Source: Octopus vulgaris
Lineage: Eukaryota
Assembly (NCBI GenBank): GCA_951406725.2
Contig: OX597816.1
Location: forward strand, 123,132,001-123,196,000
DNA length: 64,000 bases
Direction of reading: 5' to 3'
Positions 2,653 to 63,942 of this stretch are shown one piece after another (position 1 is the stretch's first letter; each line of letters opens with the position of its first letter). The notes beneath the pieces were generated by a model that had not been told where the DNA came from, did no database searches, and worked only from the letters and a program-made list of their open reading frames with translations. A program made the position numbers and the translations under genes.

Positions 2653-3062
2653 TCTGCCCTATATCAGTCTCTGGCATCAATGTTACTGAGATAATTTTCA
2701 CATACCTCATTGTTTTTTAGCTTCTTGGCTTGGCATGAGCAGCCAGACATCTAAACATTACTTCAACGAAATCTTCCTCATGGTGAAGGAGTAATAATCC
2801 TCTTCTTGGTGCTATTGTTACAGTTGAGAAATAACAGCAGGTAACATAAATAGTTTATGATGCTGAGGAACCATTAAGTATTTTTTTGAAGTTATAGAAG
2901 GCTAGTATTGGCATTTACAACAGGAAATCATATATAGCTATACATGTCAATACAGCTATATGTATTAATCATTATCAATGATTTTCATACAAGCATATGG
3001 AAAAGAACGAAAGAAACAAATGAAGCTGAAATCATTAATATATATCCTTGAGTATATTGCTA

Positions 3063-5723: not shown

Positions 5724-8662
5724 ATCCAGCTACAAAAATGCCTCATGATAATAGCAAAGGAGAATGGGCACCAGCCAGCCAGCCCAAAGGTTGGGCTGCA
5801 CCTGCCTACCTGTAAAAGGAAGGTGCAAGCACTTGTACTGGGTTGCGCAAGCATGACTTGCCTTATGATGGCTGATGGCCTAAGGAGAATCTTGGGGTAA
5901 GGTTGTGAAGTTGGAATGTGTGCAGTCTGTGTGGAAGGAGGACTGAGGTGTGTGAGGAATTGAGGAAGAGGAGGGTGGATGTGTGCTGTGTGCAAGAGGT
6001 TAGGTGGAGGGGCCAGGGTGTAAGATTTGTGGGAGTCAAGGGAAAAAGGTACAAGTTGTGGTGGTTGGAAAATAGCAAGGGGACTGGAGGTGTGGGAATT
6101 TTGGTGAAGGAAGAAATCTGTGAGAAGGTGGTAGAGGTCAGGAGAAAGAGAGACGGAGTGATGATAGTAGTATTAGCATTTGAGGAAGAGGGGGTGCGGG
6201 TATTTTGTGGGTATGGTCCACAAAGTGGAAGAGGGATCACTCCAAAAGGGCAGTTCTTTGTTGAAATGGCGAATGAGTGGGACTTACAAAAGGTAGATGA
6301 ATTGGTTTGGGGCATGGGTGATTTTGATGGACATGTTGGGAAATGGATCCATGGCATTGAGGGCATGCATGGGGGAAATGGAATTGGGGTGAAAGATTTG
6401 GAAGGAAGGATGCTGTTAGAGTTTTGTGATGAGAAAGCGTTGTGTGTGGTGAATACATGGTTTAGAAAAACAGAGAAAAGGAAGGTGACTTTTAGTGCAG
6501 GAGGGAATGAGACAGAGATTGATTTCATGTTGGTTGGCAGGAGGCAAAATAGAAATATCTGAGAGATGTAAAGACAATACCAGGGGAGTTGCAGCACAGG
6601 TTGGTGATTACTGACTTGGATAAGAGGGAAGTTACAAAGTGTGTGAGAAAGGGAATGGTTGAGAGGAGAAAGGTCCAGAAACTGAAAGAAGAAACAAAGC
6701 AAGGTTTGAGGAGAGAGTTGGGGAGTTAGTAAGCATTGATGCACCAGAAGTGAGTGGAAGGACGAAGGGTAGGAGAGATCGAGGAAATATGTGATGGTGG
6801 AAGGAGGAGGTGAGGAATGCTACAGTGAGGAAGAAGGAGGCACACAAAGCTTTATGTAATAATAGGAATGAGCAAATGAAAGTCAGGTATAATAACATGA
6901 AGAATCGTGCAAAAAGGGGGTGGTTGTGAGATCTATGTAGAAGGAGGCTGAGGAGAGGTTGAGCAGGCTGGAGGAGAACCCAGATAGAGCGTTTAGGTTT
7001 ATTAAATCAATGAAAAATGATGGAAGAGATGTTGAGGGAGAAAGATGCATGAGGGGGAGTGATGGAAGGTTGAATTTTAGTAAGGACAGGGGGAAGAGTT
7101 TAGAAGGAGCATATGGAGGGAATTATGAATGAGGAGAATGAATGGGATCAGAGGGTGGAAATTGCCGTAGTGAAGGTGCCAGTGGAGAGGGTTAGTCAGG
7201 AAGAAGTAGTGGAGACAATGAAGGAAATGAAAGCAGGGAAGACAGCTGGTCTGTCAGAAATAAGTGTGGAAATGATAACTGCAAGTGGAAAGATAGGGAT
7301 TGTTGTGACGATGGAACTCTGCCAGGAAATGCTGGATGGAAGAGGAATGCCAGATGATTGGGTACTAAGTGTGGTGGTACCAATTACAAAGGGGAAGTGA
7401 GATGTGATGAGTTGTGGGGAGTATAGAGGAGTGAAGTTATTGGAGCATGCAATGAAGATAATGGAAAGGGTGTTGGAGAGGAGAATTTGGAAAGGGGTAG
7501 ATGTGGATGAGATGCAATTTGGTTTTATGCCAGGAAGGAGGACAATAGATGCAGTGTTCCTTGTAAGGAGATTGCAGGAGGAATACTGAGATAAAGGGAA
7601 GGAGTTGTACATATGCTTCGTTGATCAGGAGAAGGCATTTGATAGGGTTCCAAGGAAGGTGATTGAATGGGCATTGAGGAAGAGAGGTGTACTAGAGGTA
7701 ATAGTGAGAACAGTGATGAGTTTGTATGTGTGAGCATTGAATCAGAGCTGTCAGAGGAGTTTGTAGTGGAAGTTGGTGTGCATCAGGGATCTGTGTTGTC
7801 ACTATTGTTGTTTGCAATAGTGGTTGATGTGGTAATGGAGAGTGCAAGAGAGGGACTGCTAATGGAGATACTGTATACAGATTACATTGTTCTGATGAGT
7901 GAGACGATGGAGGGATTGAGGGAGAGTTTTGGAAATGGAAGGAGGCATTTGAGAGCAAGGTACAAATCAGGAAGATAAAGGTGATAGTGAGTGGGGTGGA
8001 AGGAGAAGTATTAGTAAGGTGGATCTATGTGGTGTATGTGGAAGGAGGGCAATGACAAATACAGTGTTGTGTACAAAATGTGAGAAATGGATTCATGGTA
8101 GATGTATGAAAATGAAGAAGGTGATCCCAAGACTGGCAAGAAAGTTTGTTTGTGGAAGATGAGAGAAAGGAGCTGGAGGGCTGGCAAGGTCAGTGGAAAC
8201 ACTTTGTGATGGGAGGAGACAGTGAGAGGGTTTTGTTAATTGGGAGATAAGGTGGATGTTAGTGGTGGATGTGATTTGACAGCAAGAGCAAGACTTGGCT
8301 GGGTGAAGTTCAGGGAATGTGGAGCAATATTATATGGAAAAAGGTTGAAAGGAAAGGTGTGAGAGCTGCAATGCTCCAAGGGTGAATGGAGTGCAGTGAT
8401 ATGAGCATGTGTTGAGGAGGGATGAGGAGCATGTTCTGAAGAGGGTGCTAGAGTTTGAGGTAAACGGACAGCAAAAGCGAGTTAGACTGAGGAAAATGAG
8501 GACAGGATAGGTGGATGAGGAGATTGGGAGGGTTGGCTTAAGAAGGGAGAATGTCCAAAACTGGAAAAGATGGTGAGATGGTTGCTATGGCATTGAGATA
8601 GATCCAGCCACCCCCATTAATGGGGACAAAACCCGGATTCAACATGATGGATGATGATGATG
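5723..8662 (+). mobile_element. Degenerate, nearly full-length RTE-clade LINE (AP endonuclease + reverse transcriptase pseudogene)
   Basis: APE motifs (RRVDVCCVQEVRWRG, GVGIL, MGDFDGHVG, TEIDFML) in ORF 5918-6562. RT motifs YRGVKLLEHAMKIMER, QFGFMPGRRTIDA, GVHQGSVLS and LYTDY (decayed YADD) at 7113-7978. Many stops and frameshifts; ends in GATGATGATG. Confidence 0.93.
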
Positions 8663-8687
8663 ATATATATAAAAAGGATATATATAT

Positions 8688-8984
8688 TTGCATTGGGAAC
8701 CACTTCACATTGACAACCGGTGATTTCACATGCTGATGATGGGTCAAAAATCCAGAAACCCGGGTCTGTGTGTATCACATCAGGTTGGAGATGGGAAGGA
8801 TGGCTTCCCTTTGCAAATACTGATAGGGTACAGAAAGTGTGTCAGTAGCCAGCTGGAAGAGGTGTCTTCCTAGTGCTACAAGCTACAGTAGCATCCACCC
8901 TTAAGGGCTAGCCACATTTCAGTGGCAAATATATTTCATGATGTCATGCAGCTACTGTTTATACCTCACTCAGAGATTTATTAC

Positions 8985-8987
<3 letters not shown>
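8688..8987 (+). mobile_element. Hammerhead-bearing ~300-bp element (retrozyme/Penelope-pLTR-like unit, family H1)
   Basis: Colinear homology with 63561-63858 along its length; contains the hammerhead at 8720-8778; 3' end runs into (TA)n. Confidence 0.75.
8720..8778 (+). ncRNA. Type I minimal hammerhead ribozyme
   Basis: Stem I CACATG/TGTGTG, extended by GTGAT/ATCAC across an internal loop. Core CTGATGA (8733-8739); stem II TGGGT-CAAAA-ATCCA; GAAA (8755-8758); stem III C-CCGG-G with palindromic loop; cleavage triplet GTC (predicted cut after 8766). Confidence 0.8.
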
Positions 8988-9026
<39 letters not shown>

Positions 9027-9042
9027 CACACACACACATATG

Positions 9043-9078
<36 letters not shown>

Positions 9079-9135
9079 TGTATGTATGTATGTATCTATG
9101 TATGTATGTATGTATGTATACAGGTATGCATGTAT
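8988..9135. repeat. (TA)n/(TATG)n microsatellite
   Basis: Directly visible. Confidence 0.95.
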
Positions 9136-9846
9136 AACTTTTAATTTAAAAATGAAGACCTTAATTTCTAAATTAAAAATTCTAAGGAAGTATATTTATC
9201 CAAAGTAAGCAAGATATATTGACATTCAGGCAAAGAGTCTTCATTCTACTTTACATTTTCCCCTCTAAATCTTTATGGCTCTACAACATTAAGATATATA
9301 AAGAAATTACTTATAATATTCAATGAAAATATATTGTCAAAGCTTCTTTGCATAAATGAACATTTGTCTTCATTTATCAAAAATATCTCTTCTGGCAACA
9401 GCTTTTGTTAATCCATTGAATAATGAACTGCAGTTACGTTAGTCGAGGATAAGATGAGAGGTTTTGTTTTAAAACTGAAATTGCTTTAATTCTCATTATT
9501 CATTCTTGTTTAAAATTGGTGGTTAAATTATTTAGTGAGAGCAGTATATTAAAGTTTACTGTATTTATTGATTAAATTACAGATTTCTTACTTTATTTCT
9601 TCACTTTTGAGAGAAAACTACTCCAGAATTTAGACATTTTTTTTACTATATTAATAAAGATGGAGGACTGCACCTTAAAGGGAGACTGACAGTGTATTTT
9701 GTATTACAGAATATGATTGCAAATATGAAAGGGAAAAATCACTGTCTCTGAAATGCACATACTCATGCACAGACATGCCCATGTTTTATTTCATTCTAAT
9801 TCAACTTCATCTTTCTTGGAAGATAATCAGAATTCACTAGTTTTCC

Positions 9847-37262: not shown

Positions 37263-37545
37263 TTTTATTTCTCACTTGTTTTAGTCATCATACTGTGGCC
37301 ATGCTGGGGCACCAGCTCAAAGAATTTTTAATCAAATGTATCAACCCCAGTACATGAGTCAATATGAATGGGATAAAAATGCAAGTTGAGCAAGTAAAAT
37401 TCAGACTATATATGTTTCCTAGCTAGCAGATCTCTGACTTAATAGTTACTCAACGAAGGGTACTTTTCTAGCTACTCATCTGGTTGAAGTTACCTTAACT
37501 ATATCATCTTTAAGGCATCTCAAATTAACTCACCAAAGATATAAA

Positions 37546-38405
<860 letters not shown>

Positions 38406-61752: not shown

Positions 61753-63376
61753 ATATATATCTATTGTGCTTGAATAGCTGAAAATATTTTTATTGGAGCT
61801 ATCATTTTTGTAGCTGGCTAGCTTTCCTCTAGTTAATCATACTATCGTGAAGTCCCAACATCATTTCTTATTTCCTTTTAGCCAGACAAATTGAAATAAT
61901 AAGAGATACATAACAGACTTAGTGATATAATTGACTTGTGTGTTTTAAACTAATGACCATTTATTCACATGTTCATTAGTTTAGCCCTTTAACCTCACAG
62001 CCACTATATCTCATGAATCGATGATGGCTTGCTTGCTTCACTGGTTCAGAAATTCCTAGCTCTCGTCTGGTAATTTATTTGCTGCTGTCACAATTAATGT
62101 CAGTTATCTCATTAGATTCTCTATTTCATTTGATATTAGAAATAAAATTAAAAAATTACTGCTTTTGTAAATTAATTCTTTCTTTTAAAGTGTGACACTT
62201 ATTGAGAATGAAAATTAAAGAAAAGAATCAATATTGAGAAAAGTTGTCTTAATTCGTTTTTCTAAAAGAAGTTTATTTCATATTTTTTTAGATTTAAAAA
62301 AAAAAATCTAAAATAGTTATTTGGTATGTTTCTCAAAATACACAATCAGCCAAGCTATATATTCTTACTAAAAATATAATATGGGATAATTGAGCACTGA
62401 ATTCTTTTAAAATGATTTTATAAATAGAATTAATTCTTTACTATGGATAATCAATACTACTTATATCATATCAAAGTAATTGTATTTTAAACTTAAAATT
62501 ATTTTTTATAAACAACTGCATATTTCTCATTCCTTCCTTTTTTTGTTTACTTTTTGTTCTAACTATGATTCCTTTTCTTATACTCTTTGTATTCACTATA
62601 TCTTTCAACCCTTTTTGCCATCACTTATATCCTCCCTTAAGTGACACATACGCCCACAACATCTTATATGAATCCCTTTCTGAAGTAACTCATTTCTCTT
62701 TCCACATCCAACCCATGCTCATTTCCATTTTAGATGAGAATTTATGAAGATACACAAGGCTGTACAGGATTTGGGGATAAATATATAGATCGAGGGAAGT
62801 AACTTATAAAGAAATCTTAATTGTTACCTTAAATCTTATCATCCTCCCATTCGCCCTGGGATCTTTGCAAGGAGCTGCATTCACCATGGATTGATTAATT
62901 CCCTGATTATTTTATGTGAGAATGCTTGTGCATGTCTAGGCTTATAAATACACATGTATGTACACATGCATCTCCATACAAAATATGCTCACACTCACAG
63001 ATGCACACACATAGACAAACAAACATGCACACACAGACAAACATACACACACATACACGTGCACACATACACATACGTTCACACACACATATACACATGC
63101 ATGTGTGTGTATGTTGTGTATCTATCAGAATGCCATGATAGATCGTTAGCTCCAACACGCATTTTTTTTCTCTCCTTGTTTACTTTTGTAAATTTTCCCT
63201 TTGTATATATATATATAACGTAAAGTATACTAGCTATCAATATGGCTAACCACTAAGGGTGGGTGTTACCGTAGCTTTTAGCCCCCGGAGATCATCGTCT
63301 CCAGCTGGCTTTAGGCACACTGTCTGTGCCCTTATGGTATTTGCAAAGGGAGGTCATCCCTCTCTCGTGAGCCTAA

Positions 63377-63435
63377 GCAATACATACGGACTGCAGTTTT
63401 GAGGTGTTTGCCTCTTGTCAACGCACGGTAATCAC
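63377..63435 (-). pseudogene. Inactivated hammerhead ribozyme, left arm
   Basis: CGTGCG TTGACAA GAGG-CAAACA-CCTC AAAA C-TGCA-G TC CGTATG: stems intact, core positions C3, G8 and G12 substituted. Confidence 0.7.
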
Positions 63436-63594
63436 CGGTTTACGATGAAAAGGAAGACTTGTTTGCAAATACTTATGGGTTTTTCTAGTAACTACTGTCA
63501 CTGATTTCGAAAAACTGTCTGCAAGCAATAATAAATTTCTGAACGAGATGTAAACAGTAATTGCAAACAGGTCTTCCCTTTTCATCATAAGCCG

Positions 63595-63653
63595 GTGATT
63601 ACCGTGCATTGACACAAGGCAAACACCTCAAAACTGCAGTCCGTACGTATCGC
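63595..63653 (+). pseudogene. Inactivated hammerhead ribozyme, right arm
   Basis: CGTGCA TTGACAC AAGG-CAAACA-CCTC AAAA C-TGCA-G TC CGTACG; positionally homologous to 8720-8778. Confidence 0.65.
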
Positions 63654-63855
63654 TTAGGCTTACGAGAGAGGGATGGCCTCCCTTTGCAAATACCATAAGG
63701 GCACAGATAGTGTGCCTAAAGCCAGCTGGAGATGATGATCTCCTGGGGCTAAAAGCTACAGTAACACTCACCCTTAGTGGTTAGCCATATTGATGGCTAG
63801 TATACTTTACGTTGTCGAGCGGTTACTGTTTACATCTCGTTCAGAGATTTATTAT

Positions 63856-63858
<3 letters not shown>

Positions 63859-63942
<84 letters not shown>
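63859..63942. repeat. (TA)n + (GA)n microsatellite
   Basis: Directly visible. Confidence 0.95.

Follow-up and report, generated by a model that had tools for sequence, protein, structure and literature searches.

A 358-nt hammerhead retrozyme family of Octopus vulgaris, probably copied into (AT)n repeats by Penelope-like enzymes, and its truncated, decayed copy on contig OX597816.1

Features of the locus

The window analysed here is a stretch of 64,000 nucleotides from Octopus vulgaris (GenBank assembly GCA_951406725.2, contig OX597816.1, positions 123,132,001 to 123,196,000, forward strand). It contains a hammerhead motif within one insertion of a short repeat, and the associated features are as follows.

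5750–8664, plus strand: dead LINE with an APE domain (PF03372) at 5909–6559, a broken reverse transcriptase and a (GAT)n tail; 5' edge approximate
8665–8670, no strand: short (AT) remnant at the 5' junction of the insertion
8671–8987, plus strand: single family-1 insertion that begins at unit position 340, crosses the border of the 358-nt unit and stops at 298, with 93% identity to the consensus
8709–8731, plus strand: empty target site for L1/Tx1-like elements, the counterpart of the stretch that is duplicated, with the insertion point, in other copies
8720–8778, plus strand: type I hammerhead motif (stem I of 6+5 bp, stem II, stem III of 2 bp plus loop)
8758–8765, plus strand: 8-nt palindrome forming stem III, through which two hammerheads would share an 8-bp helix
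8827–8843, plus strand: conserved hairpin 1, 3' of the ribozyme, found in all three aligned families; changes in its helix 4 are one-sided only
8847–8877, plus strand: conserved hairpin 2, 3' of the ribozyme; two-sided changes in 5 of 10 pairs of helices 5–6
8934–8987, plus strand: site A (about 8934–8944) and the "tail" to site B (about 8981–8989), two putative reverse-transcription start sites
8988–9136, no strand: (AT)n/(TATG)n microsatellite that borders the insertion on its 3' side, the kind of target preferred by the family
63217–63859, no strand: second, unrelated insertion, of family 4; a head-to-head inverted pair with arms at site A and site B

The LINE is near full length and retains APE and reverse transcriptase remnants among many stops; we take it to be an RTE element on the basis of its motifs. 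The hammerhead starts about 55 nt past the LINE tail on the same strand, and the retrozyme copy sits in an (AT) tract that follows the (GAT)n. Elsewhere in the window, at 37539–38402, an unusually long (AT)n tract of 860 bp was observed.

The hammerhead motif

The hammerhead motif at 8720–8778 is real. Its core consists of CUGAUGA (8733–8739), GAAA (8755–8758) and GUC (8764–8766), and the position of the latter predicts cleavage after 8766. Stem I is formed by 8727–8732/8767–8772 plus 8720–8724/8774–8778, and stem II by 8740–8744/8750–8754 (pairs U-A, G-C, G-C, G-U and U-A), while stem III has 2 bp and the loop CCGG, all inside the palindrome. These elements and their coordinates, first described in a sequence-only reading of the window, were all found as described. 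In the fold model, the palindrome forms an intermolecular duplex of -16.3 kcal/mol and no stable hairpin alone.

That reading had proposed checks by structural descriptor and by Rfam. The descriptor, applied to both strands, gave this motif as its single match in the 64-kb window; among dinucleotide shuffles, the loose version matched in 3 of 200 and the strict version in 0 of 200. The Rfam result fell short: a scan of the whole window gave no hammerhead or other match at the gathering score, the matches otherwise being to miRNA models only, driven by microsatellites. The isolated region 8716–8788 matched Hammerhead_HH9 only weakly (17.2 bits, E 0.046; gathering score 52), and six other loci gave no match to the Rfam hammerhead models at E 0.001. 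The isolated 81-nt fold containing the ribozyme was unremarkable (z -0.63).

By the definitions of PMC4209133, the motif falls among the canonical type I hammerheads of metazoans, in which helix III is short and palindromic, and is not a min-HHR. It has the conserved core (C3–A9, G12–A14, A15.1–U16.1 and H17) with three helices and ends in helix I. The min-HHR of that paper lacks helix III and has a helix II of 7–8 bp and a helix I of 4–5 bp, against a helix III of 2 bp, a helix II of 4–5 bp and a helix I of 6+5 bp in the window. The label "minimal" in the sequence-only reading is therefore to be dropped, since the canonical class is the one with a helix I of 6 bp, a helix II of 4 bp and a helix III that is short and palindromic. 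The G10.1-C11.1 pair of the definition is replaced by U-A in the window and by C-A in the family-1 consensus, and was found in family 4 only. The sequence-only reading had set this U-A pair against the usual G-C; a loss of G-C is not supported, since the family has C-A and the sister families have C-A, A-U or G-C at this position.

A 358-nt unit with two fixed 3' ends

The genome of the species (2.8 Gb) was searched with window positions 8690–8860, which gave 1978 first-look candidates, 40 of them scored and 88–91% identical; queries from two further parts yielded 2896 and 1280, and all three figures are candidates rather than copy counts. The shared sequence corresponds to 8671–8987 and wraps onto itself as a unit of 358 nt, with a GC content of 46% and a longest ATG-initiated ORF of 46 aa. 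It has the properties of a non-LTR retrozyme, namely a non-coding unit of 150–450 bp with a type I hammerhead and a GC content below 50%. The sequence-only assignment to the type I hammerheads of Penelope-like elements (PLEs) and non-LTR retrozymes is borne out by this family. The reading had also staked itself on conservation of the core in a genome-wide family consensus, and the core is conserved there.

For the insertion anatomy, 120 loci were fetched and overlaps merged, leaving 109 loci with one remaining segmental duplicate pair. Among these loci, which were picked by similarity and with one query that forces an arm to site B, the 3' ends fell at two fixed places: 50 arms ended at site A (unit positions 240–258) and 71 at site B (288–306), about 47 nt apart. 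The 5' ends are scattered round the unit circle, and the insertions are thus circularly permuted. Insertions longer than one unit were observed at 45 of the 109 loci. Two hammerheads in one run occur at 3 of them; tandem copies are present at the level of the family, the window copy being a monomer. A head-to-head inverted arm is present at 41 of the 109 loci (15 pairs A+B, 2 A+A, 1 B+B and 23 with an arm ending elsewhere), and no tail-to-tail arrangement was found. Of the 121 ends at A or B, 75 have a (TA)3 or longer run no more than 20 nt away, compared with 257 of 3628 control positions (7%). Among arms not chosen by the ribozyme, 35 of 57 read through the cleavage site, 3 stop at most 4 nt from it and 19 are shorter; this read-through agrees with a template that is uncleaved or has been ligated again. 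Repeats within single insertions have 114 shared and 354 differing non-consensus bases, figures that do not separate a circular from a linear template.

Circular folds of the unit are strong (z -5.5 and -7.3), and good folds are obtained for the antisense strand too (z -5.6 and -6.0). In three RNA-seq runs of another organism, of unknown library type, 226–429 reads per run mapped to the full unit, about equally in both directions, and their ends showed no pile-up at the cleavage site. Among the records holding the unit sequence, none is listed as RNA.

Sister families

Three sister families are 57–73% identical to family 1. Family 2 has a unit of 362 nt (204 of 358 bases identical to family 1), a U3-A8 core and copies mostly 97–99% identical to their own consensus. 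The same two-end anatomy was observed, with 9 A+B pairs among 14 inverted pairs and no A+A or B+B, and two or more hammerheads are present at 4 of 30 loci; here too, the similarity search used to pick the loci forces one arm to site B. Family 3 is about 60% identical to family 1 and shares its C-A at 10.1-11.1. Family 4 (262 of 358 identical) combines a U3-A8 core with G10.1-C11.1, and its exact pattern gave 165 matches against 0 in controls. A stem II pattern search gave 1727 places against 4 in controls.

Family 4 includes an array (L327, C4:13619500-13626000) of 10.2 head-to-tail units that are 98.6–100% identical; it runs from mid-unit to site A, lies between AT runs and interrupts another repeat. 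From its sequence, we regard this array as the best candidate for an active master locus. The family-4 insertion at 63217–63859 of the window is 92% identical to the L327 unit and has the U3-A8 core; G12 reads A in both of its arms, probably through CpG decay.

Covariation and palindromic stem III

Covariation was assessed on 22 hand-picked copies of families 1–3. Two-sided changes are present in 12 of the 25 predicted pairs, and pairing is kept in 96% of cells, compared with 28–56% in slid controls; with related rows and a structure drawn from the same alignment, we treat this result as supportive rather than as a probability. The helices are kept by covariation across the relatives: in stem I, all seven counted pairs show two-sided changes, and stem II changes are one-sided only. 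The core covaries as well, with C3-G8 in some families and U3-A8 in families 2 and 4.

Stem III was compared in 126 sequences. Strict palindromes of seven kinds account for 72 of them, 34 pair with G-U and 20 are broken, so that 106 of 126 are self-complementary. The fold model predicts that these palindromes are stable between two molecules and not as hairpins, which makes dimer cleavage the likely selected mode; the ribozyme of this lineage likely works as a dimer. Dimer cleavage through a palindromic stem III has been proposed in PMC4209133 and PMC7229834. The sequence-only reading had raised the same idea, which is strengthened by the seven different self-complementary sequences; these constitute natural evidence for selection on dimer pairing. 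One stem III variant that seemed private to the cassette-bearing copies described below also occurs in the cassette-free family 4. A further palindrome lies in the internal loop of hairpin 2 (8853–8858) and has an equivalent, of other sequence, in family 2; it could form a second dimer contact.

Mobilisation by Penelope-like elements

The family displays a one-end tail, an inverted 5' arm, partial tandems and AT-rich targets. According to PMC8557442, PLEs show partial tandems, an inverted 5'-truncated copy, a one-end tail of 30–40 bp and a (TA)n bias. PMC11167929 explains the tail as the gap between two internal reverse-transcription start sites and calls it unique to PLEs. We therefore consider it probable that the 358-nt unit is a non-LTR retrozyme likely copied into (AT)n tracts by a PLE enzyme, the window copy being truncated, decayed and probably idle.

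In the life cycle that we infer from this anatomy, tandem loci would give rise to head-to-tail RNA, likely cut by hammerheads paired through the palindromic stem III, and the cut monomers would possibly be ligated into circles. A PLE protein with reverse transcriptase and GIY-YIG domains would nick an (AT)n tract, and reverse transcription would start inside the RNA, either about 175 nt or about 220 nt downstream of the cleavage site. The reverse transcriptase may then travel round the unit and past the cleavage site over a distance that varies, and would often leave a second arm in inverted orientation, begun from the other start site. Two published results count against this reading: PMC11167929 reports that ribozyme cleavage is not needed for PLE insertion in vitro, and of 9 retrozyme dimers tested in a preprint (10.64898/2026.07.22.740005), 1 cleaved and 8 failed to do so.

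The link to PLEs is one of anatomy, not of homology. The unit has no ORF with the PLE reverse transcriptase and GIY-YIG domains, and is not an autonomous PLE. The genome itself contains many open 781-aa frames with a GIY-YIG match, and the one scanned also has a reverse transcriptase domain. Thirty of 6136 GIY-YIG candidate loci were fetched; between the unit and a PLE terminal repeat, no homology was found in these 30 by blastn and an nhmmer profile, the only match being to a sister-family insertion. Other than the cassette, no shared coding 5' flank was found among 100 flanks. Several candidate partners were rejected. The sampled GIY-YIG loci, presumably Neptune-like from their motifs, carry their own U3-A8 hammerheads and have no homology to the unit. 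The PLE fragments that lie beside L045, L141, L232 and L233 entered the same (AT)n tracts independently. The coding flank of L219/L238, which had resembled the ORF of a partner PLE, belongs to an ORF1-like cassette and does not match PLE reverse transcriptase.

The sampled loci (L067, L072 and others) also reveal an abundant PLE family with many of the 781-aa open frames, a U3-A8 hammerhead variant about 80 nt from the 3' end and an internal tandem repeat in the 3' UTR. In L072, at about 2970–3020 and on the strand opposite to the PLE ORF, a hammerhead-like motif with a long stem II belongs to a separate inverted-repeat element.

The copies could alternatively be truncated pLTRs of an unsampled autonomous PLE rather than an independent non-autonomous unit. 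Such an origin would fit the PLE-like anatomy and the sampling of 30 of 6136 candidates, and the same preprint derives vertebrate retrozymes from PLE pLTRs on the basis of co-occurrence and pLTR similarity. We nevertheless consider it unlikely, because copies longer than one unit wrap into the 3' end of the unit itself (45 of 109, and up to 10 units in a sister family) and at no family locus does a PLE ORF occupy the pLTR position. The few adjacent PLE fragments have a different hammerhead of their own, with (AT)n in between, and a PLE-coding 5' flank common to the copies was not found among the 100 flanks compared.

For the enzyme that mobilises animal retrozymes, PMC7229834 names PLEs only as a strong candidate. 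The PLE-specific footprint in four related families bears on this enzyme and on its template, and the family anatomy yields exact predictions of where reverse transcription starts, together with a 360-nt substrate on which PLE proteins can be tested.

State of the window copy

The window copy is a 5'-truncated monomer whose 3' end lies at the fixed site B. The sequence-only reading had called its ribozyme intact, which holds for the 12 core bases; elsewhere, the 59-nt motif differs from the family consensus at 8 positions; these are CpG changes, changes in loop II, the loss of 1 nt and a single subfamily variant. The core-proximal pairs of stem I are G-U/U-G in the window and G-C/C-G in the consensus. 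Both wobbles, together with the U-A at 10.1-11.1, can be traced to CpG changes, the U of the U-A pair being most simply a change from the C-A of the family. In the nearest-neighbour model, the joint probability of all hammerhead pairs is about 75-fold lower in the window than in the consensus (7e-7 compared with 5e-5, values to be read as a ratio only).

A working ribozyme retained for the host, for instance to cut read-through RNA at 8766, would fit with the 12 intact core bases, with a palindrome that is the strongest variant and with the standard pair that closes stem II. We regard this as improbable, and slightly more so than a pLTR origin of the family. The copy is 7% divergent overall, with the 8 differences falling in the motif, and at this divergence an intact core is expected by chance. 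Intact cores were indeed found in 36 of 53 family copies not chosen by the core, so the window copy is not special. The two wobbles flank the core, loop II is altered and no partner hammerhead lies nearby, a second intact hammerhead having been sought throughout the 64-kb window.

Solitary, 5'-truncated and CpG-decayed, the window copy is probably idle. The chances that it retains cleavage in vitro are about evenly balanced, and a biological role is improbable. As a single copy it is ordinary; the family-level anatomy and the targeting by LINEs beside the core are the parts worth following.

Spread as DNA and the neighbouring LINE

Spread of the family as DNA, by unequal crossover of a satellite or minisatellite with excision and no RNA step, is very unlikely. 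The variant pattern of the L327 array does include a block duplication, so this array has partly grown at the DNA level. Against such a mode for the family stand the fixed 3' ends, the random 5' truncation, the inverted 5' arms and the strand-specific covariation of the ribozyme, all hallmarks of reverse transcription.

The hammerhead had also been placed "just downstream" of the RTE LINE, which is correct as to position, the LINE tail ending at about 8664, and does not extend to any link between the two. The 3' end of the LINE is 81–86% identical to its relatives, which makes the LINE older than the retrozyme insertion. The unit is absent from the 1.5 kb around each of 29 other copies of this 3' end, and a match to the LINE was found at 0 of 108 other family-1 loci. 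Judged by these sequence comparisons, the retrozyme is not part of the LINE and the adjacency is incidental. That the ribozyme is the 3' part of an RTE LINE, or was mobilised by one, has for it the spacing and the shared strand and is already largely refuted, and so the least credible reading of all, by these two counts, by the (AT) remnant between LINE and unit and by unit 3' ends without the (GAT)n tail of the LINE.

LINE passengers beside the core

Some copies of the unit carry an insert that splits the 5' strand of stem I a few bases upstream of the core. One such insert is a cassette of 1.68 kb with an ORF1-like frame, a G-run and an AATAAA end; its zinc-knuckle match is weak (E 0.0016, below the cut-off). 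The search gave 208 candidates, and in 27 of 30 loci read by eye the cassette lies at the fixed site, with a duplication of 10–20 bp that rebuilds stem I. Cassettes are 83–95% alike, while their hosts in families 1 and 3 are 60% alike, so the fixed site was invaded repeatedly; the tree is poorly resolved. Related ORF1 cassettes are also stacked in tandem at this site. Passenger loci (L243:6129-8690, L248, L258, L277, L274, L278 and L279) include at least three related ORF1-only types and an RT-bearing LINE. The 5' junction flank of the L268 cassette looks like the 5' end of a U1 snRNA, a resemblance that Rfam did not confirm.

The RT-bearing element at the same site (L277) matches PF00078 at 1.6e-27, with human L1 ORF2 as the best solved-structure match, and is flanked by a 17-bp duplication. 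Six of its 30 copies, query included, abut the unit at the fixed site and 24 lie elsewhere, which points to a preference and not to strict site specificity. It thus has both the L1-like reverse transcriptase and the target preference with duplication expected of Tx1 elements, and we take it to be Tx1-like from its motifs.

The point of entry of L1/Tx1-like LINEs and their ORF1-only derivatives is fixed and lies immediately upstream of the core. Since the 10–20 bp duplication restores stem I, the composite likely retains a ribozyme and can be mobilised as a whole. At L248, truncation has occurred within the cassette in both inverted arms, which have their ends at sites A and B; the composite itself seems to have been reverse-transcribed in the manner of PLEs, this locus being otherwise hard to explain. 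As a tentative proposal, for which we claim somewhat less than even confidence, the system may be a three-tier parasite. PLE enzymes would roll round 360-nt hammerhead circles from two internal starts, and L1/Tx1-like LINEs would have evolved to target the DNA of these circles 5' of the core. Restoration of stem I by the duplication would then yield an ORF1-carrying vehicle of about 2 kb that is spread by PLEs. No report of LINEs targeting hammerhead retrozymes was found in the open literature searched.

Comparison with known systems

The comparisons below refer to the accessible text of each source. Canonical metazoan type I hammerheads (PMC4209133) resemble the ribozymes described here in a helix I of 6 bp, a helix II of 4 bp and a helix III of 1–3 bp with a palindromic loop, and in the U3-A8 core variant, present here in sister families. 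Families 1 and 3 differ from the canonical form in having C-A, not G-C, at 10.1-11.1. Unlike the min-HHR of the same paper, the window motif has neither a helix II of 7–8 bp nor an absent helix III.

Tx1 elements target other transposons, for example Tx1 in Tx1D and Tx1-Mar in Mariner-N4 (PMC4494074). The passengers share with Tx1-clade LINEs an L1-like reverse transcriptase, a zinc-knuckle ORF1, a duplication of about 10–20 bp, a fixed site in another repeat and tandem insertions sandwiching the duplication, a likeness drawn from motifs. In contrast to the Tx1 cases in that paper, the target here is a hammerhead retrozyme beside its catalytic core, most passengers are ORF1-only and the composites appear to be re-mobilised with PLE anatomy.

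PLEs of the EN+ clades (PMC8557442; PAc in PMC11167929) show the same partial tandems, inverted 5'-truncated arm, one-end tail and AT-rich or microsatellite targets, along with two fixed 3' ends, a hammerhead upstream of them and read-through of the cleavage site. The unit differs from them in having no ORF, a tail of about 47–60 nt compared with 30–40, and no homology to the sampled PLE terminal repeats.

The closest relatives are the metazoan non-LTR retrozymes (PMC7229834; about 350–390 bp in the mussel family), which share with the present family a non-coding unit of 150–450 bp, a type I hammerhead, a GC content below 50%, tandem copies, a strongly self-paired predicted circle and PLEs in the same genome. 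The family described here is known from DNA, its circle being predicted. It stands apart in that most copies are dispersed and circularly permuted, measure from one to 1.5 units and bear inverted arms and tails of the PLE type, an anatomy not described in the accessible part of that paper.
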